Made by a program: the position numbers and the translations under genes. A DNA stretch of 64,000 nucleotides, taken from the NCBI GenBank assembly GCA_011389895.1, contig JAABTN010000013.1, positions 2,895 to 66,894 on the forward strand. Reading direction: 5' to 3'. Source of the stretch: Maritimibacter sp. (GTDB lineage: Bacteria; Pseudomonadota; Alphaproteobacteria; Rhodobacterales; Rhodobacteraceae). Positions 3,038-64,000 of the stretch are shown here, piece after piece. The first letter of the stretch is position 1; every line of letters begins with the position of its first letter. The notes beneath the pieces are model-generated. The model did no database searches. It was not told the DNA's origin and saw only the letters and a list, made by a program, of their open reading frames with translations.

Positions 3038-3739
3038 ATGTCCTTGAAATTGGAAACGATTGCCTTCGATGCGGACGATACGCTTTGGCAAAACGAGCAG
3101 TTTTTCCAGCTCACCCAGGAACGATTCGCCACCCTTCTGGCCGATCATGCGCCGCGCGATCACCTTGAGGCGCGGTTGCTGGCGGCTGAGCGCCGGAACC
3201 TTGGCCACTATGGCTTTGGGATCAAGGCGTTCATGCTTTCGATGATCGAAACGGCGATCGAGGTGACGGAGGAAAAGGTGCCCGCCTCGGTGATCTCCGA
3301 GATCATCGCAGCCGGGCAGGAGATGCTGTCGCACCCGATCGAGCTTTTGCCGGACGCGCGTGAAACCGTGGCTGCGCTGACCGACAGCTATCACATTCTT
3401 CTGATCACCAAGGGTGATCTGCTGGACCAGGAGCGCAAGCTGGCGCAATCGGGGCTGGGCGATCTGTTCGACGGGGTCGAGATCGTGTCGGACAAGACCG
3501 CAGGGGTTTATGCCGAAATCTTCCGGCGTCACGGCACGGCGCCGGAGCGGGCCATGATGGTGGGAAACTCGATCAAATCCGATGTCATCCCGGCGATCGA
3601 GGCGGGGGGATGGGGCGTGCATGTGCCCCATGACCTGACCTGGGTGTTCGAGCATGCCGAACCGCCAGTGCACCATCCGCGGTTTTGCAAAATTGCGTCG
3701 CTCGGGGGGTTGCCCGAGGTCGTCGCACGGGTCGCCTGA
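3038..3739 (+). CDS. HAD-superfamily hydrolase
   Basis: Motif I FDADDTLW, motif II ITKGD, motif [12 protein letters not shown]. Confidence 0.9.
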
Positions 3740-3929
3740 CGCGCCACATTTCTGCCGTAATCAACCTGTTGATGTGTCCGACCCGGAACACGCTATATAT
3801 GGCGAGACCTGCGCAAAATGCCGCAAGTTATTTCGATCATTCGCTATTTTCGAATTCGACAGGCCGTGCTACGGTCATGCCAAGCAGAAACGGGCACAAA
3901 AAAACAATCGCCCGGAGAGTGAGGCAGTG

Positions 3930-5591
3930 ATGGTACGCGACAGGATCGGTCGTATCGGGCAAGGTGTCCGTCTTCTCGTTGTATTGATCGGGGTGATGAC
4001 CCTTCCGCTCGGGGCGCTCGCCGCCCCCTATGCGGCCATGGTGATGGATGCGCGCACCGGCGAGGTTTTGCATGCGCGCAATGCCGATACTCAGCTTCAC
4101 CCGGCCTCCCTGACCAAGATGATGACGCTCTACATCGCGTTCGAGGCGGTGAAGAACGGCGAGATCGATCTTGATTCGCTCGTGACGATTTCGCAAAACG
4201 CTGCCTCCGAAGTGCCCTCGAAGATCGGGTTTCGCGCCGGGTCGCAGGTGCGCGTGCGGTACTTGATCCGGGCCGCGGCGGTGAAATCGGCGAACGATGC
4301 CGCAACCGCGCTGGGCGAGGCGATCTCGGGGTCGGAACAGGCCTTTGCCCGCCGCATGAACCGGACCGCCAAGGCGATCGGCATGAGCCGCACGAATTTC
4401 AAGAACATGCACGGGCTGACACAGGCCGGGCACATGTCGACCGCGCGGGATATGACCCTGCTTGGTCGCCAGCTTTTCTTCGACCACCCGGAATATTACA
4501 ACCTGTTCTCCCGTGAATCCGCCAATGTCGGGGTCAAGACGGTGTATCACACCAACCGGCGTTTTCTGAGCGACTATGCCGGGGCGGACGGGATCAAGAC
4601 CGGCTATACCCGTGCGGCCGGGTTCAACCTCGTCGCGTCGGCGCGGCGCGGGGACAAACGCATTATCACCACCGTGTTCGGCGGCCAATCGACCGCCTCC
4701 CGCAATGCCAAGGTGGCCGAGTTGATGGACATGGGGTTCCGCCGTGCATCGTCGCGCGTCGCCGCGCGCGCGCCTGCAAAGCCCCCCTACCTTGGAAATT
4801 CCGGGATCGGGGCGGGCGCGCCGGACATGGTCGCCAATGCGCCCGGCGTGCTGGATCCGGGCGGGGTCGGCAAGACGATCCGCATCGCGGTCGCACCGAA
4901 GAAATCCATCCATCCCAAACCCCGCCCGGCCCCCGAGCCGGTCCTGACCGCCGAAATGGCCGAAGAGGTGGAAGAGGTTCTGGGGACCGTTCTCGCGGAA
5001 GCCACCGAAGCGGAGGTGACCGAACCGGAGACCGCGGAAGCCGCCACAGACGCCGCCGTGGTGGCCGCCAAAAACGCGGTCACGCAGGCCACCACAGACG
5101 CGGTCGCGCAGTCCGAGGCCCCGACGCCCGAGCCGACGGGGGACAGCGCGCCGACGCGTGACGACGCCCAACAGGTGGCCGATGCCGAGACCGAGACCGC
5201 GCGCATCATCGCCGCCTCGCTCGCCGCGCCAAAGGCGGCACCGCAGCCGCCGGAACGCCCCGAAGGTGTCATCCTCGCTTCCGTCGAACGCTCGGCCCCA
5301 CAAGGAAGCGCGGCCCCACAGGTCGTGACCCGTATGTCGACCTCGGGCGGGCGTCATTGGGGCGTGAATGTCGGCGTCTACACCACGCATTACGAGGCGC
5401 AGCGGGTGCTTTTGAAAACCGCCCTCAGCGATCTCACAAGTCTGAGCGACGCGTTGCGCAAGGTCTCGAAAACCCGGCAGGGGTTCAACGCCAATTTCGT
5501 CGGCCTGACCCAAGAGGGCGCGGACCTTGCCTGCCGCCGATTGGCCGCGCGCAACACCTCCTGCACCGTGATCACGCCGACGGGAAGTTGA
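3930..5591 (+). CDS. D-alanyl-D-alanine carboxypeptidase (peptidase S11) with Ala/Glu/Thr-rich linker and C-terminal SPOR-like domain
   Basis: Signal-like N-terminus, HPASLTKMM (SxxK), KSANDAA, DGIKTGYT (KTG), C-terminal WGVNVG...A...C...C segment. Confidence 0.9.
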   Translation: MVRDRIGRIGQGVRLLVVLIGVMTLPLGALAAPYAAMVMDARTGEVLHARNADTQLHPASLTKMMTLYIAFEAVKNGEIDLDSLVTISQNAASEVPSKIGFRAGSQVRVRYLIRAAAVKSANDAATALGEAISGSEQAFARRMNRTAKAIGMSRTNFKNMHGLTQAGHMSTARDMTLLGRQLFFDHPEYYNLFSRESANVGVKTVYHTNRRFLSDYAGADGIKTGYTRAAGFNLVASARRGDKRIITTVFGGQSTASRNAKVAELMDMGFRRASSRVAARAPAKPPYLGNSGIGAGAPDMVANAPGVLDPGGVGKTIRIAVAPKKSIHPKPRPAPEPVLTAEMAEEVEEVLGTVLAEATEAEVTEPETAEAATDAAVVAAKNAVTQATTDAVAQSEAPTPEPTGDSAPTRDDAQQVADAETETARIIAASLAAPKAAPQPPERPEGVILASVERSAPQGSAAPQVVTRMSTSGGRHWGVNVGVYTTHYEAQRVLLKTALSDLTSLSDALRKVSKTRQGFNANFVGLTQEGADLACRRLAARNTSCTVITPTGS

Positions 5592-5594
5592 CGG

Positions 5595-5612
5595 GCACCG
5601 CGCCGCCGGTGC
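5595..5612. terminator. GC hairpin between convergent genes
   Basis: gcaccg-N6-cggtgc inverted repeat between the stops at 5591 and 5619; no clear U-tract. Confidence 0.35.
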
Positions 5613-5618
5613 GGCCCC

Positions 5619-7226
5619 TTACATCGACGCGCCCTTGGTCGCCTTGATGTCGAAGGCGGCGGCCATCAGGGCGCGTGTGTATTCGGTTTGCGGGGCATCG
5701 AATACCTGATCCACGTCACCCTGTTCGACCACGTCGCCCGATTTCATCACCATCACCTTGTGGGCCAGCGCCCGCACGACACGCAGGTCGTGCGAGATGA
5801 ACAGATAGGCCAGCTTATGCTTGCGCTGGAGGTCGCGCAGAAGTTCGACGATCTGCTGTTGCACAGTCATGTCGAGCGCCGAAGTCGGCTCATCCAGCAC
5901 CAAAAGCTTCGGGCGCAGGATCATCGCACGGGCGATGGCGATACGCTGCCGTTGCCCGCCGGAAAACTCGTGCGGGTAGCGATGCATCGTGACCGGGTCG
6001 AGCCCGACTTCGGTCATGATCTCGGCCACCACGGCTTCCCGGCTCTGGCCGCTGGGAAGCCCGTGCACATCGAGCCCCTCGGTGATGATCTCGGCGCAGG
6101 TCATGCGTGGTGAGAGCGATCCATAGGGGTCTTGGAACACGATCTGCATATCCCGGCGCATCGCCCGAAGCGCGCGCGCTTTGCGCCCTTGGATGTTGTC
6201 ACCGAGAAAGACAATCGCCCCGTCCGAAGAAATCAGCCGCATCACCGCGAGCGCCAGCGTGGTCTTGCCCGACCCGCTTTCGCCCACGATCCCCACGGTC
6301 TCGCCCGCCCGCACCGACAGGGTGGCGGCATTGACCGCTTTCACATGCCCCACCGTGCGGCGCAGAAACCCGCGCTGGATCGGGAACCAGATGCGCAGAT
6401 CTTGGGTAGCGGCGATTTCGGGGGCATCGGCGGCAACCGGGTCCGGCTGGCCCGCCGCATGCGCCGACAACAGCATCCGGGTATAGTCATGGCGGGGGTT
6501 GGAAAACAGCGCCTCGGTCTGCCCTTGTTCCACGATCAGCCCGTCTTTCATCACGTAGACGCGGTCAGAGATCCGGCGCACGATCCCGAGGTCATGGGTG
6601 ATGAAGAGCATCGACATGTGTTCGGTGCGCTTGAGATCGGCAAGAAGGTCGAGGATCTGCGCCTGTATGGTCACGTCGAGCGCGGTGGTCGGCTCATCCG
6701 CGATCAAAAGGTCGGGGTTGTTGGCCAGCGCCATCGCGATCATCACGCGCTGGCGTTGCCCCCCGGAGAGCTGGTGGGGATAGGCGGTGATCCGGGTTTC
6801 CGGGTCGGGAATGCCCACCCGTTTGAGAAGCTCGATGATCCGGTCCTGAAGGGCCTGTCCCTCCAGCCCTTGGTGCAGCTGGATCGATTCGCGCAGTTGC
6901 TTTTCCAGCGTGTGCAGCGGGTTGAGCGAGGTCATCGGTTCCTGGAAGATGAAGCTGATGTCATTGCCCCGGACCGCGCGCAGCCGTTCGTCGGGGGCCC
7001 CTACCATCTGCTGGCCATCATAGGTGACCGATCCGCTGATCGTCGCGCTTTCGGGCAGAAGCGACACGGTCGAGAGCGCCGAGACCGACTTTCCCGACCC
7101 GCTTTCCCCGACCAGCGCGACCGTTTCGCCTTTGCCGACCTCGAAGGACACGCCCTTGACCGCCGGGATGTCGCGCCCGTCCTGCCGAAAGCTCACACCG
7201 AGGTTGTCGACCTTGAGAAGGCTCAT
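5619..7226 (-). CDS. yejF: Peptide ABC transporter dual-domain ATPase (YejF-like)
   Basis: Two GESGSGK Walker A motifs, two (L/F)SGGQRQR signatures; ATGA overlap with upstream permease. Confidence 0.9.
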   Translation of the reverse strand: MSLLKVDNLGVSFRQDGRDIPAVKGVSFEVGKGETVALVGESGSGKSVSALSTVSLLPESATISGSVTYDGQQMVGAPDERLRAVRGNDISFIFQEPMTSLNPLHTLEKQLRESIQLHQGLEGQALQDRIIELLKRVGIPDPETRITAYPHQLSGGQRQRVMIAMALANNPDLLIADEPTTALDVTIQAQILDLLADLKRTEHMSMLFITHDLGIVRRISDRVYVMKDGLIVEQGQTEALFSNPRHDYTRMLLSAHAAGQPDPVAADAPEIAATQDLRIWFPIQRGFLRRTVGHVKAVNAATLSVRAGETVGIVGESGSGKTTLALAVMRLISSDGAIVFLGDNIQGRKARALRAMRRDMQIVFQDPYGSLSPRMTCAEIITEGLDVHGLPSGQSREAVVAEIMTEVGLDPVTMHRYPHEFSGGQRQRIAIARAMILRPKLLVLDEPTSALDMTVQQQIVELLRDLQRKHKLAYLFISHDLRVVRALAHKVMVMKSGDVVEQGDVDQVFDAPQTEYTRALMAAAFDIKATKGASM

Positions 7227-8404
7227 TGAAAGGTCTTTCGCGGGTCGAAGGCGTCCCGCACGCCCTCGAATATGAAAACGAGGAGCGACAAGAGCACGGT
7301 AAAGGTGATGAAGGCGGTAAAAGCCAGCCACGGCGCCTGCAGGTTCTGTTTTGCCTGCCGGGTCAGCTCGCCCAGCGAGGGCGACGAGGACGGCAGCCCG
7401 TAGCCGAGAAAATCGAGCGCGGCGAGCGTGCCGATGGTGCCGGTGATGATGAAAGGCAGCATGGTCAGAGTTGCCACCATGGCGTTGGGCAGCATGTGAC
7501 GGAACATGATGGTGCGGTTCGATACGCCGAGAGCCTTGGCCGCGCGCACGTATTCGAAATTCCGGGCCCGCAGGAATTCCGCCCGCACCACGCCCACGAG
7601 GGCGGGCCACCCGAAGAGGACCGTGACGAAGACCAGAAGCCAGAAACTTCGCCCGAGAATCGCGAAGAGGATGATGATGACGTAAAGCGACGGGGTGGAG
7701 GCCCATATTTCCAGGATGCGCTGGAATACAAGGTCAAGCCAGCCCCCGAAATACCCCTGCACCGCCCCCGCCGCGATCCCGACGAGAGACGTGGCGACGG
7801 TCACGATGATGGTGAAGAACACCGACAACCTGAAGCCATAGATGATCCGCGCCAACACATCGCGCGCGGTGTCGTCGGTGCCAAGCCAATGGTTCGCGTC
7901 CGGGGCCGAGGGGGCGGCGGTGCCGATATCGTTGATCGTGTCGTAGCTATACGGGATCGGGGGCCAAAGCATCCAGCCGGTGGTGATCGGCGCACCCGCG
8001 ATCTCGCCATCTTCGGCGTCCTCGATCGTGGCGCGGGGATCGTCCCAACATCTTTGCGAGCCTTGCGAGATGATCAGGCATTTCACCTCGATGTCCGAAT
8101 ACACCGCTTCGGTCCGGAAATCGCCGCCAAAGGCGGTCTCCGGATAGAATTGGAAAATCGGCATGTGGAGCTTGCCATTGTAGCTCACCAAGATCGGTTT
8201 GTCGTTGGCGATGAATTCGGCAAACAGCGTGAGGCCGAAGATCAACGAGAAGATGATGAGCGACCAGAACGCCCGGCGATTGCGTTTGAAATTGCGCCAG
8301 CGTCGCTGGTTCAGGGGCGACAGGAACGGACGCTTGCGCGGGGGTATCGGCGCGGTCTGGGCCGGTGTGCGGGTGTTGGGCGAGGTTTCGACGGGGTCCG
8401 TCAT
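7223..8404 (-). CDS. yejE: Peptide ABC transporter permease (YejE-like)
   Basis: LSPLNQRRWRNFKRNRRAFWS, HWLGTDDTARDV, RAEFLRARNFEYVRAAKALG. Confidence 0.9.
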   Translation of the reverse strand: MTDPVETSPNTRTPAQTAPIPPRKRPFLSPLNQRRWRNFKRNRRAFWSLIIFSLIFGLTLFAEFIANDKPILVSYNGKLHMPIFQFYPETAFGGDFRTEAVYSDIEVKCLIISQGSQRCWDDPRATIEDAEDGEIAGAPITTGWMLWPPIPYSYDTINDIGTAAPSAPDANHWLGTDDTARDVLARIIYGFRLSVFFTIIVTVATSLVGIAAGAVQGYFGGWLDLVFQRILEIWASTPSLYVIIILFAILGRSFWLLVFVTVLFGWPALVGVVRAEFLRARNFEYVRAAKALGVSNRTIMFRHMLPNAMVATLTMLPFIITGTIGTLAALDFLGYGLPSSSPSLGELTRQAKQNLQAPWLAFTAFITFTVLLSLLVFIFEGVRDAFDPRKTFQ

Positions 8405-8405
8405 C

Positions 8406-9500
8406 TCACACCTCGCGCTTTTCAAAGTCGATGCGCGGATCGACCAGCACATACATCAGGTCCGAGAGAATGCCGATCACAAGACCCACGAGGCCAAAGA
8501 CGAACAGCGTGCCGAAGATCACCGGGTAATCGCGCGCCACCGCCGCTTCGAACCCGAGCCGGCCAAGCCCGTCGAGCGAGAAGATCGTCTCGATGATCAG
8601 AGACCCGCCGAAAAAAACCGCGATGAACAGGCCCGGAAAACCCGCGATCACGATCAGCATCGCGTTGCGGAACACGTGGCCATAAAGAACCCGGCTTTCC
8701 TTTACGCCCTTGGCGCGGGCAGTGATCACGTATTGCTTTTTGATCTCGTCGAGAAAGCTGTTTTTCGTCAGCAACGTCAGCGTCGCGAAGCTCGCGATGG
8801 TCGAGGCAAAGACCGGCAGCGCGATGTGCCAGAAATAATCCAACACCTTCCCGATCAGCGAGAGATCCTCCCAGTTGTCCGAGGTGAGGCCGCGTAGCGG
8901 GAAAATCTGCCAATAGGTGCCGCCTGCGAACAACACCAAAAGCAGGATCGCGACGAGAAAGCCGGGTATGGCATAGGCGACGATGATCAGCCCCGAGGTC
9001 CACGTGTCGAACCGCGACCCGTCATTCACCGCTTTGCGGATGCCCAGTGGGATCGACACGAGATAGGCGATCAGCGTCGACCACAGGCCAAGCGTGATCG
9101 AAACGGGGAGCTTTTCCGCCACCAGTTCGAAAACCCCGATCGACCGAAAGTAGCTCTCGCCAAAGTCGAGCCGCATGTAGTTCCAGATCATATTGAAGAA
9201 ACGCTCGACAGGCGGTTTGTCGAACCCGAATTCGCGTTCAAGCTCTTCGATAAACTCGGGGGGCAGGCCGCGCGCACCGGCATATTCGCTCCCGCCCTGC
9301 ACGTCGGACCCGCTGGTATCGGCGAAATCACCGCTCCCGCCGGAGATCGCGCCGAACACGTCGCCCTCGCCCTCGATCTGGGCGATGATCTGTTCGATCG
9401 GCCCGCCAGGGACGAATTGGGTGAGTGTGAAGTTGATGACCATGATCCCGAACAGCGTCGGAATGATGAGCAGCAACCTGCGGAGAATATAGGCGCCCAT
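8406..9500 (-). CDS. yejB: Peptide ABC transporter permease (YejB-like)
   Basis: [43 protein letters not shown]-terminus. Confidence 0.92.
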
Positions 9501-9515
9501 GGGGTCCTTTCGCCT

Positions 9516-11444
9516 TTAACGCAAAGCGCCCGCTTCAATGAGCGCGTCGTGTTTCTCGGCGTCATACCACCAGAAATCAAGATACCCCAGTCCAAGCGGC
9601 GGGATCTCGTCGGGGCGGCCATACATATCCCAATAGGCGACCGTGTGCACGGGCTTGAACCACTGTGGCACGGTGAAGCCGATCGAACGCAACACGCGGT
9701 CCAGCGCATGGACCGAGGTGCGCAATTCATCGAGCGTCTCGGCATCGACCACGGTCGGCAGGATCGCGTCCACGGCGTCGTTGCGCAGCCGCATGAGGTT
9801 GCGCGAACTGTCGTCGGCGGTCTTGGAGGCGAACCATTGTTCCAACCCGATGCCCGGCTCGAACCCCATCTGGAACGAATGGCTCACAAGGTCGAAATCG
9901 CCCGCGCGACGGCTTTCGACATACTGCGCGGTATCGACCCGGTTCAGCTCGGCATCGAAGCCAAGCAGGCGGAGGTTCTCGATATAGGGGTTGAGGATGC
10001 GGTCGAAATTCGGATCGAACGAAAGGATTTCAAGCCCAAGGGTCTCGCCCGCGTCGTTGCGGCGCAGCCCGTCGTCGCCGACCACCCAGCCCGCGTCTTC
10101 CAGAATTTGCCCGGCTTCGCGATACATGCGGCGCGGCGGGCGGTTCTGATCGGTGGTGTTCACGGGGGGCAGAACCGCCTCGTCGGTCAGGATCGAGGCG
10201 TCCAGAAGACCCTCGTCGACCAGCGGCTGAAGGATCGCGATCTCGGCTTCGGACGGGGTGCCGGTGGCGGCAAGATCGGTGCCGGGCCAGAAGCTGTCAA
10301 CCCGGTCGTAAAGCCCGTAAAACAGCGCCTGGTTCGACCATTCGAAGTTGAACATCATCTCGGCAGCCTTGCGCACCCGCCGGTCCTGCCACGTTTCGCG
10401 ATCGAGATTGAAAACGAAACTCTGTGCGGTGCCCACGGTGCCATCGGGGATTTCTTCCTTAATGACATTGCCCTCGTTCAGCGCCGGGAAATCATAGCCG
10501 GTCGCCCAGATCAGCGACGAGTTTTCGATCCGGTAGGTGAAGGCCCCGGCCTTGAACGCTTCGAAGGCCGCTTGGCTGTCGGCAAAATATTCGACCCGGA
10601 TACGGTCGAAATTGTTGCGCCCGACGTTCATCGGGTGATCGGTGCCCCAGTAATCCGGGTTCTTCGCGTAGATGATCTGGCGGTTGAAATCCTTGCTTTC
10701 CAGAACATAGGCCCCGGTGGCCATGAAGGGTTCCTCGGAACTGTCGTCAAGCCGCGTGCCGGTCTCTTCAAACCACGCCTTCGAGAACACCGGTGTGCCG
10801 CCGGCAAACCCGATGCGTTCGCGGATCGGGGATTGGTCGGTGAAGGTGAAGGTTATGGTATGCTCATCCTCGATCTCGACATCTTCGAGGAACCCTTCGA
10901 CGATCCGCCGATATTCGGTGATCCCCTGTTCCAAAAACAGGTTGAACGAGAACAGCACGTCTTCCGCCGTCATCGGCGTGCCATCGGCAAAGGTCACGTC
11001 ATCGCGCAGGTTGAAGGTGACCCATTTCAGATCCTCGGGATATTCCATCGTCTCGCAGAGAAAACAATAAATGCCGTAGGGGTCGTCGAGCGCGGTCGAC
11101 ACGATGGATTCCGACCCGATGGTGGCAAGCGCGGCAGCAACGCCCTTGCGCGAATAATTGTTGAAACTGTCAAAGGTTCCCATGGCCGAGATCGAAATCT
11201 CGCCCCCTTTCGGCGCGTCCGGGTTCACGTAGTCCAGATGCGCCATGTCGGGGCCGTATTTGACAGCGCCGAAGTTCGAGTACGCATGTGTCGTGGTCGT
11301 GTCCTGACCAAGAACCGCGGGCGCTGTCGCGATCAGCCCGGCTGTGGCAAGGGCAAAGGCCATGAGCGGCATGGGCACCGGGCGCACCGGGCGCACCGGG
11401 CGCGGAGCGGCGGCGCTTTGGGCCTGCGGGCGATGTGGCGTCAT
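9516..11444 (-). CDS. yejA: Peptide ABC transporter substrate-binding protein (family 5, YejA-like)
   Basis: HLDYVNPDAPKGG, GTFDSFN, GRNNFDRIRVEY, WWYD C-terminus; signal peptide. Confidence 0.9.
   Translation of the reverse strand: MTPHRPQAQSAAAPRPVRPVRPVPMPLMAFALATAGLIATAPAVLGQDTTTTHAYSNFGAVKYGPDMAHLDYVNPDAPKGGEISISAMGTFDSFNNYSRKGVAAALATIGSESIVSTALDDPYGIYCFLCETMEYPEDLKWVTFNLRDDVTFADGTPMTAEDVLFSFNLFLEQGITEYRRIVEGFLEDVEIEDEHTITFTFTDQSPIRERIGFAGGTPVFSKAWFEETGTRLDDSSEEPFMATGAYVLESKDFNRQIIYAKNPDYWGTDHPMNVGRNNFDRIRVEYFADSQAAFEAFKAGAFTYRIENSSLIWATGYDFPALNEGNVIKEEIPDGTVGTAQSFVFNLDRETWQDRRVRKAAEMMFNFEWSNQALFYGLYDRVDSFWPGTDLAATGTPSEAEIAILQPLVDEGLLDASILTDEAVLPPVNTTDQNRPPRRMYREAGQILEDAGWVVGDDGLRRNDAGETLGLEILSFDPNFDRILNPYIENLRLLGFDAELNRVDTAQYVESRRAGDFDLVSHSFQMGFEPGIGLEQWFASKTADDSSRNLMRLRNDAVDAILPTVVDAETLDELRTSVHALDRVLRSIGFTVPQWFKPVHTVAYWDMYGRPDEIPPLGLGYLDFWWYDAEKHDALIEAGALR
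11375..11401. repeat. Three perfect 9-bp tandem copies (gcaccgggc) in the yejA signal-peptide region
   Basis: gcaccgggc x3 read directly; encodes the RPVRPVRPV tract on the minus strand. Confidence 0.9.
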
Positions 11445-55424: not shown

Positions 55425-58034
55425 ATGGCAAAATTGCAGCAGATCAGCGGACTTTTGGCCCTGATCACCGCCGTGGCCGTTCTGGGGATTCTGGTCAGTC
55501 AGCTCTCGCAAAAAGTCGAGCAGTTCTCGTTTGCCCGTTCTGACAGCGACGCGTGGAATTTTGCCCAGGTCGAGGTTGCCTTTACCCGCCTTCACGCGGC
55601 CTTGCTTGAGGGGCAGACCGAAGTCCGCGCGCAGGGGCGTGTCGACATCGAAGGTGATACCGAGATCCTTGCGCGTTTTGATATATTCTATTCACGGGTC
55701 GATACGGTGTCGGACCGCTACGGCATGTTCCCGGGGCAAAACGCGATGCGCCCGACGCTCGCGCAGATTCGTGAGGCGCGCGACCTTATGGCGGAAACGC
55801 TTGATGCGGGGCGATATCTGTCCGAACCACAGTATTATGCGCTTCTCGAAAAAGCGGAAAACCTGCGCCCATTGGTTCGTAATTTTGCGCTAGCCGCCAC
55901 GCATTCTTCCATCGAGGATCAGGAACGCGTGCGGGTCGACGTATATTCATCTTTGCGCAATGCTTTCATTACCCTGTCCGCACTTGCCTTCTTGTTGTTG
56001 GTTCTGGCCGCCAGTCTTATTCACGTGTCACGCAGGTTGGCGGCGAAGAATATATCTGAGTTGAATATTATCAGGTATTTGACCCAACTGATCGAGGTCT
56101 CGACGGACGGGATCGTTATCCTCGACCGGGATTTGAAAGTTATCAATGTAAACCGCGCGGCGGAGTGGATATTTGGTTGCGATCGTTCCGTGCTTATGGG
56201 ACGGGATGCGATGCAAACCCTGTGCCCTCAGCGCCGCACGGGGGGCATGGAGAAACGGCTACGCGCGCTGTTTGATGACGAATTCGATTCAAAAAACAAT
56301 CTATACCAGGTGCCGATTTTCGCGCGCCGCAAAGATGGTGCCTTGTTCCCGGCCGAGCTGAGCGTTGTCTGTGTCAGAGATCAATCCTGCCAGAAGGTGC
56401 TGGTCGGCTTCGTGCGCGATCTGTCATCGCAACGCAAGGCCCGGAAGGTCACGAAAAGCGCCCTTGCGCGCGCGCGTAATGATGCTGCTGCAAAACAACG
56501 GTTTCTCGCCACCATGAGCCATGAAATGCGCACGCCTTTGCATAGCATCATCTTGGCCAGCGACATGGCGCTGACACCCGACACGCCGACTGTCCCGGAA
56601 AGCTCGATTTCGGTGATTCGTGCCGCCGCGCAAACGGCGCTGGACCAAGTCGAGGATGTTCTTGAGATCGCGCGGGACAGCGCCATTTCGCCAGAGGAAA
56701 AAGTCGAAGACCTTGATGCCGAAGCGGTTGCCAAATCGTTGGTCATGCAGATGCACCCCATGGCGCGGGCCCGAGACAGTCAGCTTGTCTTCAACTGGAC
56801 CGCGCCCGACAGGCTGCGCGGCGCACCGGGTCCGTTTACCAAGATCATACAAAACCTCGTCTCGAACGCGATCAACGCCACGCAACACGGAACGGTCACC
56901 ATCACCGGATCGCCCGGCACCCTGAAGGGTCGCCCTGCCTTGCAGATCGAGGTTGCGGATACCGGGCGGGGGATCAGCGACGCCGACAAGGAAAATGTCT
57001 TTCATGATTTCTTCTCGGGGACTGGCCTGGACGAAAACACCACCACGGGCACGGGGCTCGGGCTGGGGATCGTGAAAAGGGCGCTGGACACGATGGGGGG
57101 CCAGATCACCTTTGAAAGCGCCCTCGGGGAGGGGACAAGATTTCAGGTCTTGATCCCGCTGTCACACCCCCCCGCGCGCCCGTTCGAAAGTAAGACACAT
57201 CCTGTCTCCCGCGACCAGAACGCCGGGCCCGATGGGGCGTCTGATCCGCACCTGGCCCCGCCAAGAAACCCGACAGGCGAGAAGGTTCTCGTGATCGAGG
57301 ATCATGCGACCAATCGACAGCTTCTTGAGGCCATGCTGATCAAGCTGGGCTACGAGGTTACAACCGCAGCCGATGGGGTCGAAGGGGTCCGGTGCGCGAT
57401 TGAAACGGACTTTGACCTGGTTCTCACCGATATTAATATGCCAAGGTTGTCTGGCGACAAGGTTGCAAGATGCCTGCGGCATTCAAGCGTTTCTGGCAAT
57501 GCCTGCATCATCGCCGTGACCGCGAAGTCGGGGGTCTCGGACGCGCAGGGCGCAGCGATCGTCTCCGGAAACATAGACGCCTTCTTGTTCAAACCCTTCG
57601 ACAGTGTGCGGCTGGCCACTGTCATTTCCGAAGCCCGCGAAGAACGGTCCTTCGCGGCGGAAGACATAGAAAAAGAGGTCTCGGACCGCGGTGATCTTTC
57701 GGCCCCCGCGCAAAAGAGACTGGTTGAAACCAGCCCATACCCAGACCTCATGGCGCAGGCCAAGACAGACATGCGGGCGCTTCTTGCACGAATGGCGGAT
57801 GTGACCGGAGCCGATATCATGCAAACCGGCTTTGACGATCTGGCGCGTTTTGCACATTACGTTGCGGGAAGCCTCTTGGTCTTGGGGTTGCTTGACCTTG
57901 GCCATGCAGTGGCCGACGTCGAACGCATGTGTCACGACAGGGATCGGCAAAGCCTTGTCGCCTTCACCATCATCCTTGCGGCGGAAACCGACCGATTGTT
58001 CGGGGATGCGCCTGCGGAAGTCACACCGGCCTGA
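55425..58034 (+). CDS. Hybrid sensor kinase: TM-periplasmic-TM, PAS, HisKA, HATPase, REC, HPt
   Basis: PAS (VNRAAEWIFG...ARRKDGALFPAELSV), FLATMSHEMRTPL, NLVSNA, DTGRG, GTGLGL, LVLTDINMP, FAHYVAGS. Confidence 0.93.
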   Translation: MAKLQQISGLLALITAVAVLGILVSQLSQKVEQFSFARSDSDAWNFAQVEVAFTRLHAALLEGQTEVRAQGRVDIEGDTEILARFDIFYSRVDTVSDRYGMFPGQNAMRPTLAQIREARDLMAETLDAGRYLSEPQYYALLEKAENLRPLVRNFALAATHSSIEDQERVRVDVYSSLRNAFITLSALAFLLLVLAASLIHVSRRLAAKNISELNIIRYLTQLIEVSTDGIVILDRDLKVINVNRAAEWIFGCDRSVLMGRDAMQTLCPQRRTGGMEKRLRALFDDEFDSKNNLYQVPIFARRKDGALFPAELSVVCVRDQSCQKVLVGFVRDLSSQRKARKVTKSALARARNDAAAKQRFLATMSHEMRTPLHSIILASDMALTPDTPTVPESSISVIRAAAQTALDQVEDVLEIARDSAISPEEKVEDLDAEAVAKSLVMQMHPMARARDSQLVFNWTAPDRLRGAPGPFTKIIQNLVSNAINATQHGTVTITGSPGTLKGRPALQIEVADTGRGISDADKENVFHDFFSGTGLDENTTTGTGLGLGIVKRALDTMGGQITFESALGEGTRFQVLIPLSHPPARPFESKTHPVSRDQNAGPDGASDPHLAPPRNPTGEKVLVIEDHATNRQLLEAMLIKLGYEVTTAADGVEGVRCAIETDFDLVLTDINMPRLSGDKVARCLRHSSVSGNACIIAVTAKSGVSDAQGAAIVSGNIDAFLFKPFDSVRLATVISEAREERSFAAEDIEKEVSDRGDLSAPAQKRLVETSPYPDLMAQAKTDMRALLARMADVTGADIMQTGFDDLARFAHYVAGSLLVLGLLDLGHAVADVERMCHDRDRQSLVAFTIILAAETDRLFGDAPAEVTPA

Positions 58035-58102
58035 CGGGGGGCCCGTGGCACCATACCATGCGCACTCCCGAAAGGGTTTCATCGAAACTTATGCGGGCAG
58101 GT

Positions 58103-58115
58103 CAAAACCAAAGTT
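58103..58115 (+). promoter_or_regulatory. Second copy of the module half-site
   Basis: CAAAACCAAAGTT versus CAAAACTAAAGTT at 54803-54815. Confidence 0.4.
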
Positions 58116-58180
58116 GAAAAGCCACGGTCGGCTAGCCGCGTTAACCTCTTTCTACGTTTCTTGGCGAGAGGTGACATCCG

Positions 58181-58726
58181 ATGTTTACGATTTTTGACGG
58201 CCCCGATGCCAATTGTATCTTGCTCAGCGGGACCCGGCCCACGGTTTCGGACCTGTCTCAGTATCTTGAGCAGAACGAGGTCGCGCTTCGCCATGTCACG
58301 TCTTACGAAGCCTTGCACACCACGCTTGAGACCGGAGGGGACGCGAATTACATCCTCGTCGATGTCGATGCGTTCGGTGGCATCGATACCCAGTTCGAGC
58401 GTTTGCGATCGCTCCGCGATGCCTTTCCGGACAAGCCGACAATCCTGCTGTCCGCCGCGTTCGGGAGGGATGAATTCGGCACCCATCGCATGATGCTTGG
58501 GGATGTGTCCCTGCGCGTGCCTGTCCTGCATGCCTCGATCGAAATCGCCTTGCTCCAAGCCCCCGTCAACAATGCGGAATGGCGCGCTCGGTTCGATGAG
58601 ATGCAATATGAACGCTCCAGCCAGCGCGTCTGGTCGGCCGGGTGGTGGAAAACCCTTTCGGCTGGCGTGGACGCCCCAAAGGACCCTGTCAGATTGATGA
58701 ACCACCCCAGTTTCGCGGCAGGTTAA
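58181..58726 (+). CDS. Atypical stand-alone receiver-like protein
   Basis: Predicted receiver strand pattern: CILLSG (no acidic pair), YILVDVD (Asp kept), TILLSA, SLRVP (no KP). Confidence 0.55.
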   Translation: MFTIFDGPDANCILLSGTRPTVSDLSQYLEQNEVALRHVTSYEALHTTLETGGDANYILVDVDAFGGIDTQFERLRSLRDAFPDKPTILLSAAFGRDEFGTHRMMLGDVSLRVPVLHASIEIALLQAPVNNAEWRARFDEMQYERSSQRVWSAGWWKTLSAGVDAPKDPVRLMNHPSFAAG

Positions 58727-58758
58727 CGCCGAATGCGATCTATCCGTTCAGGTCCATG

Positions 58759-59568
58759 TCAATATCCCTTGTAGTCGGGTTTGCGCTTCTCCATGAAGGC
58801 GCGCGGGCCTTCGCGGGCATCTTCGGTCGCCATCACGACCGCTTTCGACGCATTTTCCAGCGCGTAACCTTCGTCGAGCGGACGCCCCATGCTCCGCGTC
58901 ACGGTCTTCTTGATCTCCTGCACCGAGACGGGGGCGTTCTCGGCGATCCGGTCCGTCATCGCCCGCGCCTCGGCCATCAGGTCTTCGGGTGCGACGATCC
59001 GGTTGATGAGCCCGTGCCTTAGCGCGCCTTCGGCATCAAGCGGCACATTGGCCACCATCATCTCCATCGCGGCCGTGTACGGGATCTGGCGCGGCAGTCT
59101 GGCCAAAGCGCCCGCGAAGGGGATGACCCCGCGCGCCGCTTCCGGCAGGGCAAAGGTCGCGCCGGGCACGGCAAGCCGGATGTCGGTCGCGAGCAGGATC
59201 TCCATCCCACCTGCCATGCACGGGCCATTCACCGCCGCCACGATGGGCTTGTACATCTCGAACCCACGCAGCGCGGTGCGGGCATGAACGCTTTCGTCCT
59301 CAAGAAACCGGCGGTCCCAATCCGTTTCAACCGGACGTGCGCCGGAGAGCAGAGGCAGGGACAGTTCAAGATCACCGCCCGAGCAAAACGCCTTGTCGCC
59401 GGAACCGGTCAGGATGACTGCGCGGATCGTGTCGTCCTCGGCGATCTCGGCCATTGCGTCGGCCATCAGGCAGGCGACTTCCGGGCTGATCGCGTTGCGC
59501 CGTGCAGGGCGGTTGAATGTCAGCGTGGCGACATGTCCGTCGCGTTCGAACAGGAACGGCGCGCTCAT
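58759..59568 (-). CDS. Enoyl-CoA hydratase/crotonase family
   Basis: FNRPARRNA, AFCSGGDL, AAVNGPCMAGGMEI, FALPEA, EDAREGPRAFMEKRKP. Confidence 0.93.
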   Translation of the reverse strand: MSAPFLFERDGHVATLTFNRPARRNAISPEVACLMADAMAEIAEDDTIRAVILTGSGDKAFCSGGDLELSLPLLSGARPVETDWDRRFLEDESVHARTALRGFEMYKPIVAAVNGPCMAGGMEILLATDIRLAVPGATFALPEAARGVIPFAGALARLPRQIPYTAAMEMMVANVPLDAEGALRHGLINRIVAPEDLMAEARAMTDRIAENAPVSVQEIKKTVTRSMGRPLDEGYALENASKAVVMATEDAREGPRAFMEKRKPDYKGY

Positions 59569-61286
59569 GTGCGGGGCACCGGCTTGAGCGTGCCGTCTTC
59601 GATGGCGCGCGACGCCTGTATGCGCAGGGCGAATTTCTGGACCTTGCCGTTGGCGGTCATGGGCAAGGTTTCGATCCCGACGATGTATTTCGGCATCTTG
59701 TGGCGGGCCATGTTCGCGCGGCAGAACGCCTGAAGTGTCGCTGGGTCGATGTCGTCCCCCGGCATCGGCACGACATAGGCGCAGATTTCTTCTCCGAGAT
59801 CGGGGTCGGGCACCCCCACGACCTGCGCTTCGCTGACGGTGATATGGTCGAGCAGACAATCCTCGATCTCGACCGGGTAGACGTTTTCGCCCCCGCGAAT
59901 GATCATGTCTTTCAGACGCCCGACGATCTTGAGATGTCCGGTCTGCGCCAGTTCGGCAAGGTCGCCGGAATGCAGCCAACCGTCGGCATCGATCGTCTCG
60001 GCGGTCTTTTCGGGCATGTCGAAATAGCCGGTCATCGTGTTGTAGCCGCGGATGCACAGCTCGCCGCTTTCCCCCCAGCCGCAGGTTGCGCCGGTTTCCG
60101 GATCGACAATCCGAATCTCGGTATGGGGCAGGGGCGTTCCCGCGGTGGTGAGTTGGTCCTCGAAACTGTCGGTGGGGGTGGTCAGCGTGATGACCGGGCT
60201 GCACTCGGTCATGCCCATGAGCACGAGCGGGTCACCGCCGGTCTTGTCCTTCATCGCGCGCAGAAGGCTTGGCGGGATGGTCGTGCCGCCGGTGAAGGTC
60301 TTGCGCAAGGTGCGCGTGTTGAAGCTGGCCCAATCGGGATGCTCCATCATGCGGGTCATCATGGTGGGCACCGCGTTCAGGATCGTGGGCGCGTGGGCAT
60401 CCCAAAGCTCCAGCATGCGACGCGGTTCGAAGCTGTCCATCGTCACGAGATGGCCGCCCGAGACGAGCATCGTCATCACGTTGCAGACGCAGCCCGCCGT
60501 GTGGAAGAGCGGCATGGCAGACAGCAGCGTATCGTCCGGGCCGAACCCGCCGCGATCCGCTGTCAGCCGCGCGTTGTTCACTGTCGAGCGGTGGGTCAGC
60601 ATTGCGCCCTTGGGCTTGCCGGTGGTGCCCGAGGTATACTGGATCTGCGTGACGCTATCGCTTTCAACCGATGCCTGACGCCTGGCCAATGCCTGCGCCG
60701 GCGTGTCCTTTGCAAGCGTGCGGAGGTGTGCAAACGGCATTGCGAAGTCGGGCGCGTCGCCGACGGCGATCAGGGCCTGAAGGTCCGGGAGCGTCGCGCC
60801 GCCTGCGCGCCGTCCGCCGGTGGTGTCGGCCAGGTCGGGCATGAGTGCGGTCAAGTGTGCTGCAATGTTGTTCGCGCGGGCCATCGGCGAGAACACCAGG
60901 GCTTTCGCGCGGCTCTGGGCGAGAAGATACGCCAATTCGCCCTGCAGAAGCGCGGGGTTCACCGTGACCAGCACTGCCCCCGCCTTGGCCAGCGCGTATT
61001 CGAGCAGGATCCACTCGGCGCCATTCTGGGCCATGACCGCGACATGGTCACCGCGCTCGATCCCAAGCGAGATGAAACCTCGCGCGATCACGTCCGCGTC
61101 GGCCTTCAATTTGCCATAGGTCCATGTGGTGGTGCCCGCCCCCGCCTGTTCATCGACCGTCACGGCGGGGCGGTCTCCATGGGTCCGGGCCTGCTGGTCC
61201 AGCATGCCGCCCAAGGTCACATCGAGAATGGCCGGACCCGATGCATCAGGCCGCCACCATGCGATGTTTTCCGTATCTGTCGTCAT
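59565..61286 (-). CDS. Acyl-CoA synthetase (AMP-binding)
   Basis: YTSGTTGKPKG, GMTECSP, GWLHSGDL, IIRGGENVYPVEIE, GKVQK. Confidence 0.95.
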   Translation of the reverse strand: MTTDTENIAWWRPDASGPAILDVTLGGMLDQQARTHGDRPAVTVDEQAGAGTTTWTYGKLKADADVIARGFISLGIERGDHVAVMAQNGAEWILLEYALAKAGAVLVTVNPALLQGELAYLLAQSRAKALVFSPMARANNIAAHLTALMPDLADTTGGRRAGGATLPDLQALIAVGDAPDFAMPFAHLRTLAKDTPAQALARRQASVESDSVTQIQYTSGTTGKPKGAMLTHRSTVNNARLTADRGGFGPDDTLLSAMPLFHTAGCVCNVMTMLVSGGHLVTMDSFEPRRMLELWDAHAPTILNAVPTMMTRMMEHPDWASFNTRTLRKTFTGGTTIPPSLLRAMKDKTGGDPLVLMGMTECSPVITLTTPTDSFEDQLTTAGTPLPHTEIRIVDPETGATCGWGESGELCIRGYNTMTGYFDMPEKTAETIDADGWLHSGDLAELAQTGHLKIVGRLKDMIIRGGENVYPVEIEDCLLDHITVSEAQVVGVPDPDLGEEICAYVVPMPGDDIDPATLQAFCRANMARHKMPKYIVGIETLPMTANGKVQKFALRIQASRAIEDGTLKPVPRT

Positions 61287-61351
61287 GTGCCTAACTCCTC
61301 CACGCCAATTTCATGCTGCCTCGATCCCCGACGACAATGCTGGACATGATT

Positions 61352-61388
61352 TTGATTTGTTGCTACCAAATAGTTTGATAACAATCAA
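61352..61388. promoter_or_regulatory. AT-rich imperfect inverted repeat, candidate MarR operator
   Basis: ttgatttgttgc...gataacaatcaa between the divergent ligase and marR genes. Confidence 0.4.
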
Positions 61389-61419
61389 TCTGTGATCAAC
61401 CAATCCATGATCAACCGGA

Positions 61420-61941
61420 GTGCCGGATATGACGCAAACAGGTGATCTATCGAAGACGTCGCAGGGGGCGCAGGGAACGCAGGATGCTGCGCTGAGCGAT
61501 CTCTTGCCGCTCGGGGCCGATCTTGAAAACTCGTTGAACTTCCGCATTCGCATGGCTCAGATCCTGTCGTTTCGTCATTTCGAGAAGCAGCATCCAGGAT
61601 ACGGCGGTGCGTCGCGCTTTCTGGGTCTGTTGTCGATCATCCGGGCGAACCCCGGCAGCCCGCAAAACCGGCTTGCCGAGGCCGTGGGTCTCCAACGATC
61701 CAGCCTGGTGCCGATCCTCGACCGCATGGAGGACGAGGGCATCGTGGAGCGTCGAAGCGTCGAAGGTGATCGTCGTTCCAAGGCCGTGTTCCTGACGGAA
61801 AAAGGCGAGGACGTCGTGTCCGAACTGAGCGAGTCGGCGCTGGAGGTGGAGAAATACATCAGCGCGGGTCTGACGGAAGAACAGCGCTCTGCGCTGCTCC
61901 AGGCGCTTGACCAGGTCATCTATAACCTGCGGAGGCTTTGA
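61420..61941 (+). CDS. MarR-family regulator
   Basis: LAEAVGLQRSSLVPILDRMEDEGIVER...DRRSKAVFLTEKG. Confidence 0.93.
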   Translation: MPDMTQTGDLSKTSQGAQGTQDAALSDLLPLGADLENSLNFRIRMAQILSFRHFEKQHPGYGGASRFLGLLSIIRANPGSPQNRLAEAVGLQRSSLVPILDRMEDEGIVERRSVEGDRRSKAVFLTEKGEDVVSELSESALEVEKYISAGLTEEQRSALLQALDQVIYNLRRL

Positions 61942-62033
61942 CTTCGCAGATACGAAGAAGGTCGCGCGAAGGAGGTGCGACCGCACACATGGACGGACCG
62001 ACTGTGTTGGCCGTCGTTTTAGGGAGGAACAAG

Positions 62034-63062
62034 ATGAAAAACCTACTTCTTACCGCCGTTGCGGCGACCGCAATCAGCGCACCGCTGACCGCGTCCGCGC
62101 AGGACGTGACACTCGCCTTGTCACATTGGGTGCCGCCGGTGCATGCGCTTCAGCCCACCGGCTTCGAGCCATGGGCGGAGTCGATCAACGAGGCGTCAGA
62201 CGGGCGTATCCAGATTGACATATTCCCGGCGCAGCAGCTTGGCGCGGCGCCTGACCACTACGACATGGCCCGCGACGGCATCGTGGACATTGGCTTCGTC
62301 AACCCGGGCTATCAAGCCGGGCGTTTCCCGATCATCGCCGCCGCCGAGCTTCCGTTCCTCGTCTCGAACGCCACCACGGCGTCGAAGGCGCTGCACGAAT
62401 GGTATATGCAGTATGCCGAGCAGGAGATGGGGGATGTTCACGTCTGCCTCGTACACCTGCACGATCCGGGCACCTTCCACGCCACGGAAGGCCCGATCGC
62501 GGGCCCCGAGGATCTGGCGGGTAAGAACGTCCGCCCGCCGCAGGGCACCATCGCCAAGATGATCTCGGAAGCAGGCGGGAGCCCGGTTCAGGTGCCGGTC
62601 CCGGAAATGCGCGAAATCTTGTCGTCGGGCGGCGCCGACATGACCGTGGGTCCGTGGAATTCGATCATCCTCTTCGGGGTGGACGATGTGGTGACCCATC
62701 ACCTCGATCTGCCGCTCTACTCGGTGGCATTCGTCTACGCCGTGAACAAGGGCGTCTACGAGGGCCTTTCGGACGAGAACCGCGCGGTGATCGACGATCA
62801 CTGCACACCGGAATGGTCGCAGCAGATCGCGACCGGCTGGGCCGAAGTGGAATCGGGAAGCTACCCGGACTTCGCCTCCCGCGAGAACCACACGCTTTAT
62901 ACGCCCAACGACGAGCAGATGGCCGCGTGGAACGAGCTTTCCGACAGCAGCCGCGCGAACTGGTTCGAGGAAGCGGCAGAAGCGGGTCTTGAAGATCCGG
63001 AAGCTGCCCTCGCCGATCTCGAAGAGCGTCTGCAAGAAGCTGGTGGCGCCTTCGGCCAGTAG
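62034..63062 (+). CDS. dctP: TRAP substrate-binding protein DctP, TarP-like
   Basis: Signal peptide; DHYDMARDG, NPGYQAGRFP, HDPG, VRPPQGTI, IDDHCTPEW. Confidence 0.92.
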   Translation: MKNLLLTAVAATAISAPLTASAQDVTLALSHWVPPVHALQPTGFEPWAESINEASDGRIQIDIFPAQQLGAAPDHYDMARDGIVDIGFVNPGYQAGRFPIIAAAELPFLVSNATTASKALHEWYMQYAEQEMGDVHVCLVHLHDPGTFHATEGPIAGPEDLAGKNVRPPQGTIAKMISEAGGSPVQVPVPEMREILSSGGADMTVGPWNSIILFGVDDVVTHHLDLPLYSVAFVYAVNKGVYEGLSDENRAVIDDHCTPEWSQQIATGWAEVESGSYPDFASRENHTLYTPNDEQMAAWNELSDSSRANWFEEAAEAGLEDPEAALADLEERLQEAGGAFGQ

Positions 63063-63076
63063 GCCAAACCACCACG

Positions 63077-63108
63077 GGCCGGAGCATTCCTGAGGGGTGT
63101 TCCGGCCT
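63077..63108 (+). terminator. Intercistronic stem-loop after dctP
   Basis: ggccggagca...tgttccggcc stem followed by ttt. Confidence 0.55.
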
Positions 63109-63140
63109 TTCCCGTCCATGCCAACGATCGGAGGTCGCCC

Positions 63141-63665
63141 GTGCGCGCGATCAATACCATCTGCCGGGTGATCGAAGTCGTCGCCGGCCTTCTTCTGGGC
63201 GGCGTCATGCTTCTGGTGGTCGCCTCGACGTTTGGCCGCTATGTGTTCGCTGAACCCATTCCCGACAGCTTCGACATCGCCCGCCTGCTGATCGGGGCTT
63301 GCCTGTTCTGGGGGTTTGCGGTGGTCGGGTTGCGTGGCGGGCATATCCAGGTGGACCTTCTGGCCGACTTTGCCACGCCGGGCATCCGGCGTGCCATCGA
63401 CACCTTTGCCTGGATCTTGCTCTTCGTCTTCATTTGCCTGCTGGTCTGGAAGGTCTGGGATGGCACGCTCAACGCGATGACCACAAATCAGAAGACCTAT
63501 GATCTGCGCCTGCCGATCTGGCCTTTCTACGGCCTGATCTGGCTGGGACTTGCAGCCAGTTTCTTCACTGTCGGTGTGAAAGTATGGCTGCTTGCCACGG
63601 GGCGGGACAAGCTCACCTCTGCCGAGGCGCAGGAAATCGAGGATGTCACCCATGACACTCGCTGA
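63141..63665 (+). CDS. dctQ: TRAP small permease DctQ
   Basis: Four TM helices, GGHIQVDLL. Confidence 0.9.
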   Translation: MRAINTICRVIEVVAGLLLGGVMLLVVASTFGRYVFAEPIPDSFDIARLLIGACLFWGFAVVGLRGGHIQVDLLADFATPGIRRAIDTFAWILLFVFICLLVWKVWDGTLNAMTTNQKTYDLRLPIWPFYGLIWLGLAASFFTVGVKVWLLATGRDKLTSAEAQEIEDVTHDTR

Positions 63666-64000
63666 TTACACTGCCATCGGCGGCTTTGTCGCGCTGTTCG
63701 CGATGCTGCTTCTGCGTGTTCCGATCGGGGTTGCGCTGGGGCTCGTCGGTGTTGGCGGTTTTGCGATGATCCGGGGCATCGACCCGGCGTTGAACCTGCT
63801 CGCCTCCGCCCCGATCCGAACCGTCACGGATTTCAACCTGACGCTTGTGCCATTCTTTATTCTGATGGGGATTTTCGCTACGAATTCCGGCATGAGCCGG
63901 GAAATGTTCCGGGCCGCCAACGCGTGGCTCGGGCGGTTCAGAGGCGGGCTCGCGCTTTCGACCGTCGCGGCGTGCGGCGGGTTTTCGGCGATCTGCGGAA
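63652..64000 (+). CDS. dctM: TRAP large permease DctM (truncated by window end; absent from the ORF track)
   Basis: Manual translation MTLADYTAIGGFVALFAMLLLRVPIGVALG...LVPFFILMG...WLGRFRGGLA..TVAACGGFSAICG. Confidence 0.92.
   Translation, partial: MTLADYTAIGGFVALFAMLLLRVPIGVALGLVGVGGFAMIRGIDPALNLLASAPIRTVTDFNLTLVPFFILMGIFATNSGMSREMFRAANAWLGRFRGGLALSTVAACGGFSAICG

Follow-up and report, generated by a model that had tools for sequence, protein, structure and literature searches.

Which acid is taken up and broken down by the gene cluster at the right-hand end of this stretch of Maritimibacter sp. DNA, and by which chemistry? The stretch, hereafter called the window (G000:C4:2895-66894; 64,000 nucleotides, nt, in full), belongs to contig C4, which extends 12 kb further past the window end. 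Its last genes form two divergent units, an acyl-coenzyme A (CoA) ligase-crotonase unit and a marR-dctPQM unit, the latter encoding an importer of the TRAP (tripartite ATP-independent periplasmic) type, similar to TarPQM of Rhodopseudomonas palustris. We propose, with a probability of roughly 60%, that the module, which in relatives includes a short-chain dehydrogenase/reductase (SDR) and can be written as marR / ligase-hydratase-(SDR) / tarPQM, would carry out a CoA-dependent side-chain shortening of the beta-oxidative type on a hydroxycinnamate-like acid. The working proposed here is drawn throughout from homology and gene context. The features are as follows, with protein lengths in amino acids (aa).

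58759-59568, minus strand: enoyl-CoA hydratase (crotonase), 269 aa, PF00378 at E 1e-53, the final gene of the leftward operon here
59565-61286, minus strand: acyl-CoA ligase (AMP-binding), 573 aa, PF00501 and PF13193
61363-61407, no strand: conserved intergenic block with a short palindrome, a putative MarR operator
61429-61941, plus strand: MarR-family regulator, about 170 aa, PF01047 and PF12802, opening the rightward operon, with an alternative GTG start at 61420
62031-63062, plus strand: TarP-like DctP, the TRAP solute-binding protein (SBP), 343 aa with a signal peptide, PF03480 at 110 bits
63141-63665, plus strand: DctQ/TarQ, TRAP small permease, 174 aa, PF04290
63652-64000, plus strand, cut by the window end: DctM/TarM, TRAP large permease, PF06808

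All six genes were located where an earlier note on this DNA had placed them, as was the ATGA overlap that couples the ligase and hydratase genes (minus strand, ...CGC ACA TGA GCG... at 59568-59565). The whole dctM open reading frame (ORF) encodes 430 aa, ends at L006:6839 and is 92% identical to its nearest relative. By pairwise comparison with the nearest relative, all six genes are under purifying selection, with dN/dS values of 0.06-0.13 (0.07 for the hydratase). To place the module in context, species-representative genomes were scanned for TarP relatives, which gave 80 loci (L numbers below); the window proteins were mapped onto these, and the genes, called in the relatives with a caller based on GC content at third codon positions (GC3), were clustered.

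Two of the enzymes of beta-oxidative deacetylation, a CoA ligase and a plain enoyl-CoA hydratase, are present in the module. The crotonase retains both catalytic glutamates (GGME and LPE, 20 residues apart), as had been read from its GGMEI and LPE motifs, and both are invariant across the orthologue family. In hydroxycinnamoyl-CoA hydratase-lyases (HCHL), the first of these positions is a serine, and the window crotonase does not have this one-glutamate active site. It scored 108.5 bits against the HCHL model NF006588, which has a cut-off of 276 bits that was reached by no gene in the genome (92% complete). Its best NCBIfam match was EchA19 (261 bits, under the cut-off of 400 bits), and its best matches in the PDB were 3RSI and the EchA19 structures. 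Judged by its sequence, the window crotonase is not a hydratase-lyase of the HCHL type, in line with the proposal that it acts as a hydratase. The further claim that the two glutamates set this crotonase apart has to be given up, because the PRK08150-type crotonases, which form the other family found beside TarP homologs, keep both residues too. The ligase reached no NCBIfam cut-off (top model PRK12583, 511 of 832 bits), and its best PDB match, to the feruloyl-CoA synthetase 8WEV, covered just residues 207-555.

The importer is of the TarP type, with a DctP-family domain and a signal peptide in the SBP and with dctQ and dctM adjoining. The best PDB match to the SBP was 7NQG (E 5e-90, 305 bits, residues 26-336), which we take to be R. 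palustris TarP, reportedly from the work of Bisson et al. in 2022. The next matches, 7NSW, 7NRR and 7NR2, presumably the Sagittula and Chromohalobacter homologs, scored only about 164 bits. The four motifs from which a TarP-like protein had been recognized in the earlier note (DHYDMARDG, NPGYQxGRFP, HDPG and IDDHCTPEW) are all present and align residue for residue with 7NQG. TarP has nanomolar Kd values for coumarate, caffeate, ferulate and cinnamate as ligands (PMC3610893). The clade of the window SBP consists exclusively of loci that bear the same module, and further carriers of this module have TarP relatives that branch elsewhere in the tree. At six other loci (L034, L042, L047, L049, L051 and L057), the genes after tarM encode a dehydratase of the IlvD/Edd family, which at 716 bits passes the PRK00911 cut-off, and a protein of 146 aa; the TarP-family importers of these loci are 49-54% identical to that of the window, and their context is not obviously aromatic.

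The ligase-hydratase pair together with MarR and TarPQM was found in Pseudooceanicola antarcticus (L010), two Pararhodobacter/Rhodobacter genomes and one Paracoccus metagenome-assembled genome. The module is also present in Sagittula marina, Cereibacter sphaeroides and five more genera of the family, and copies of it reside on plasmids of Alloyangia pacifica; the closest metagenomic relative has a hydratase that is 92% identical. In all 16 loci examined with a hydratase at least 57% identical to that of the window, the hydratase gene is directly followed by a gene for an SDR (PF00106, about 300 aa), which fits the hydration and oxidation route put forward in the earlier note. An SDR gene in this position was seen in L010 (at 5861-6772), L011, L012, L044, L052, L094-L097, L103-L107 and L112/L113. 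In Aquabacterium (hydratase 58%), this SDR is encoded on the other strand, and a TctC binding protein stands in for the TRAP system. Both the ATGA coupling and the divergent promoter region at marR are conserved among the relatives. A gene for a tannase/feruloyl esterase follows tarM in L012, L052, L094 and L106, and a BD-FAE esterase gene takes this place in L112, the closest relative. L094 and L070 have an Amidohydro_2 gene within the module or close to it, L112 has one at a distance of about 4 kb, and in Sagittula a cytochrome P450 gene follows the transporter genes. Public annotation of the module enzymes is generic (“AMP-binding protein”, “enoyl-CoA hydratase-related”, “SDR”). Among 300 genera of the family that were sampled, 9 yielded a hydratase orthologue, and this patchy distribution, together with the plasmid copies, suggests that the module is mobile.

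The third enzyme of the route, a 3-hydroxyacyl-CoA dehydrogenase, is lacking at the window locus. DNA homology to L010 and L011 starts exactly at the hydratase stop codon (58759), and on these grounds this copy of the module has lost its dehydrogenase gene. No remnant of the SDR was found to the left of the hydratase, where tblastn at E 100 over 57900-58900 returned noise only; an SDR pseudogene was dropped as a candidate, and the space holds a PruR-like gene of the adjacent signaling module (58181-58726, plus strand). The genes for the ligase, the hydratase and the transporter are all intact. Maritimibacter sp. UBA3975 (L114) has the ligase-hydratase pair, with a hydratase 84% identical, in a setting that has neither SDR nor TarPQM. 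There, the pair adjoins two Amidohydro_2 genes, a gene similar to flavin adenine dinucleotide (FAD)-dependent ring hydroxylases and a TAXI-type TRAP system.

The regulator contains a winged helix-turn-helix domain of the MarR family, and its gene is divergent from the catabolic genes. Its description as a CouR/FerC-type MarR holds for this divergent position and less so for the likeness to CouR, which is weak (6C28, E 5e-10), SlyA being matched better (E 6e-15); the match to the Saro_0803 family was weak as well (62 of 200 bits). An alignment of five orthologous intergenic regions revealed a palindrome that reads CAAA-TAG-TTTG here and TCGAA-TAG-TTCGA in the relatives, and the block at 61363-61407 is a candidate MarR operator. 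An inverted-repeat search of the intergenic region with a seed of 6 found nothing. In the intergenic copy of this genome only, a 9-nt sequence, TGATCAACC, is present in duplicate, 16 nt apart, at 61393-61417, directly 5' of marR.

Past the window end, the genes continue into an aromatic-acid island:

L006:7001-15508 (window-equivalent 65106-73613, contig C4): aromatic-acid island continuation

In order after dctM, this island comprises genes for an O-demethylase similar to LigM/DesA, a CoA ligase similar to PaaK, a 4HBT thioesterase, a second MarR and a Liv-type ATP-binding cassette (ABC) importer. The O-demethylase is of the tetrahydrofolate (THF)-dependent aryl type and scored 498 and 458 bits against its two models, both below cut-off, with 5TL4 as its PDB match (E 3e-115). 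A DesA/LigM-like gene after tarM was seen in this genome only, in the position that the P450 gene occupies in Sagittula, and rhizobial TarP homologs also adjoin LigM-like genes. The thioesterase, 4 kb past the window, belongs to a family common to other TarP-linked clusters. The binding protein of the ABC importer matches 4F06 and 4EVS at E 1e-109, presumably R. palustris binders of benzoate derivatives, and a CouP-like ABC partner was rejected on this match. A dimethylsulfoniopropionate (DMSP)/acrylate pathway (DmdA/B/D-like) was likewise rejected, the GCV_T protein scoring 498 bits for DesA and 35 for DmdA; it is further disfavored in that DmdB-type models were not among the top matches of the ligase. 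For the ring, no protocatechuate 3,4-dioxygenase over the cut-off was found in the genome, which carries four LigB-family genes and boxB.

Taken together, the TRAP system would import an aromatic acid whose side chain is unsaturated, most likely one of the hydroxycinnamate type and possibly methoxylated. The ligase would form its CoA thioester, and the two-glutamate crotonase would hydrate the double bond to give 3-hydroxy-3-arylpropionyl-CoA. In the relatives, the adjoining SDR is predicted to oxidize this product to a beta-keto thioester, which a hydrolase or thiolase would cleave to a benzoate-level product, i.e., beta-oxidative deacetylation. With no SDR gene at the locus, this step in the Maritimibacter genome would be supplied in trans, or the branch may be incomplete. 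A beta-ketoacyl-CoA cleaving enzyme, be it a thiolase or of the CouO/Atu1421 type, is not encoded at the locus; Amidohydro_2 genes are found in another cluster of this genome (on contig C2, below) and in some orthologous loci. The LigM/DesA-like O-demethylase would strip a ring methoxy group from the product, and MarR probably keeps the two divergent operons repressed until the CoA thioester builds up. No acyl-CoA dehydrogenase is encoded in the module, in keeping with a substrate whose double bond is there from the start. The esterases, Amidohydro_2 proteins, P450, O-demethylase and benzoate-type importer of the gene neighborhoods point to a methoxylated hydroxycinnamate-type acid.

Several observations weigh against this assignment. 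The ligase, hydratase and SDR all fall under every curated family cut-off. SBPs of the TarP family that are about 50% identical to that of the window also adjoin IlvD-like dehydratases and GlcD-like oxidases. For the missing SDR, this genome offers no match better than 40% identity, compared to 56-88% among the orthologues, and two further clusters of Fcs-like ligase, crotonase and TRAP genes in the genome could handle coumarate and ferulate. With the same enzyme logic, the module might act on some other carboxylate that is unsaturated or bulky, for instance a terpenoid, alicyclic or aryl-alkenoic acid. The closest resemblance of the enzymes is to those for beta-oxidation of steroid and branched side chains, with EchA19, FadD3-type and PRK12583 ligases and PRK07791-type SDRs as the best curated matches, but all of these are below cut-off. 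Membership in the TarP family does not fix the ligand either, because the gene contexts across the family are mixed; yet genes of the feruloyl esterase family, for aryl O-demethylases and for a P450 recur beside the module, and the nearest solved SBP, 7NQG, would be that of a hydroxycinnamate binder. We consider such a different substrate unlikely.

The absence of the SDR bears on two other explanations. If the hydratase were a hydratase-lyase, the ligase and crotonase would by themselves yield an aldehyde and acetyl-CoA, as in the classical Cou/Fer route, and the SDR would be dispensable; a two-enzyme set of this kind is seen both here and in Maritimibacter UBA3975, and a hydratase-lyase activity is reported for CouA of R. 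palustris (PMC7260809, citing Hirakawa 2012). The low score of the window crotonase against the HCHL model, its first catalytic glutamate, the tight coupling of the SDR in each of the 16 close orthologous loci and the absence of an aldehyde dehydrogenase from the locus make a lyase improbable. Alternatively, the side-chain branch could be a remnant, with ligase and hydratase little used and the TRAP system mainly feeding the O-demethylase with vanillate- or syringate-type acids, an idea that draws on the clean absence of the SDR at the boundary of homology and on the DesA/LigM-like gene after tarM, with its rhizobial parallels. Intact ligase and hydratase ORFs, low pairwise dN/dS and the conserved ATGA coupling and divergent promoter region speak against such decay, to which we attach very little weight. 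Shortening of a hydroxycinnamate-like side chain is the assignment that we retain.

The two further clusters of TRAP, crotonase and ligase genes in the genome, which are of the commoner type, are:

L102 (G000:C2:42000-58000), genes 3195-10694: C2 cluster with DctPQM, Amidohydro_2, a two-glutamate PRK08150-type crotonase, a divergent Fcs-like ligase, a GntR/FCD regulator and a LigM-like demethylase
L099 (G000:C28:1-20000): C28 cluster with a TarP paralogue (34% identical), DctQM, a crotonase, MarR, an Fcs-like ligase and an acyl-CoA dehydrogenase

No dehydrogenase gene was seen in the C2 cluster within the stretch viewed. In related loci, crotonases of the C2-type family are 28-37% identical and the ligases 23-28% identical to the window proteins. 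A search with the C2 crotonase (L102:5658-6440) had marine relatives, and no named Agrobacterium protein, among the matches listed. The C28 cluster adjoins boxB/boxC and another AMP-binding CoA ligase, which ties side-chain shortening to the aerobic benzoyl-CoA route. Many of the common TarP-linked crotonases are labeled “(methylthio)acryloyl-CoA hydratase” by JGI, although they are located beside Fcs-like ligases and LigM-like genes, and the label may be an annotation transfer error.

Because the C2 cluster mirrors the SpG8-1b cluster of Agrobacterium fabrum, the window module probably serves as a parallel route that prefers a substrate of its own, and not as the main route for coumarate and ferulate. 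A more tentative possibility, for which we would not claim even odds, is that the module represents a distinct, horizontally mobile pathway for a phenylpropanoid that is poorly handled by the Fcs/crotonase clusters and that runs parallel to them in the same cell, with enzymes closer to those for steroid side chains than to the characterized hydroxycinnamate enzymes. Candidate substrates would then be sinapate, a methoxycinnamate or esters that the linked esterases of the tannase family release.

Coastal bacteria of the Roseobacter group process phenolics from plants and algae, and p-coumarate is a signal in some interactions between algae and bacteria. A defined substrate would sharpen the annotation of aromatic carbon turnover and would also provide a compact importer-plus-enzyme cassette for lignin valorization, while the module opens no new mechanism.

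CoA-dependent beta-oxidative deacetylation of hydroxycinnamates under the control of a MarR protein is published for A. fabrum (Atu1415-1417, Atu1421, HcaR) and Rhodococcus jostii, as is the sensing of the hydroxycinnamoyl-CoA thioester by MarR proteins, and the pathway variant announced in the earlier note is therefore a route already described (PMC7797058, bioRxiv 10.1101/160747, PMC10458429). The TarP-like SBP proposed there is upheld, and the non-lyase, oxidative route fits; the novelty and the glutamate marker are not upheld, and the likeness to CouR is weak. SpG8-1b of A. fabrum encodes the ligase Atu1416, the hydratase Atu1417, the dehydrogenase Atu1415, the beta-ketoacyl-CoA cleaving enzyme Atu1421, the THF-dependent O-demethylase Atu1420 and the MarR protein HcaR (PMC7797058). 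By description, the window module shares with it the ligase, the plain hydratase, the dehydrogenase (as far as the relatives go), an aryl O-demethylase that depends on THF and a MarR at a divergent promoter; it differs in its built-in TRAP importer, in the dehydrogenase absent here and in the cleavage enzyme not being in the locus. The layout of SpG8-1b is better matched by the C2 cluster than by the window module.

For R. jostii RHA1 (couHTL/couNOM/couR), Otani and co-workers are said to have described in 2014 that CouO, of the amidohydrolase superfamily, is a beta-keto-thioester hydrolase that replaces a thiolase and a thioesterase. The CoA-dependent non-lyase route reported for that species would be shared by the module, which is accompanied by Amidohydro_2 in some relatives, whereas the type of transporter differs. 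With HCHL/Ech (NF006588), the window enzyme has in common the crotonase fold and the probable hydroxycinnamoyl-CoA substrate, and it departs from them in its score (108 against the cut-off of 276 bits) and in both glutamates being retained. In the cou/tar system of R. palustris (TarPQM, CouA, CouB, CouR, CouPSTU; PMC3610893), as in the window, the genes for a TarP-like SBP and its TRAP permeases are linked to those for a CoA ligase, a crotonase and a MarR, and a second aromatic-acid importer of the ABC type is found close by. In contrast to that system, in which CouA is described as a hydratase-lyase, the MarR of the window is only distantly CouR-like, and the ABC binding protein resembles 4F06/4EVS and not CouP. 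The route itself is thus known, and what is new here is only that a trio of uncharacterized, generically annotated enzymes is joined to a TarP-type importer.

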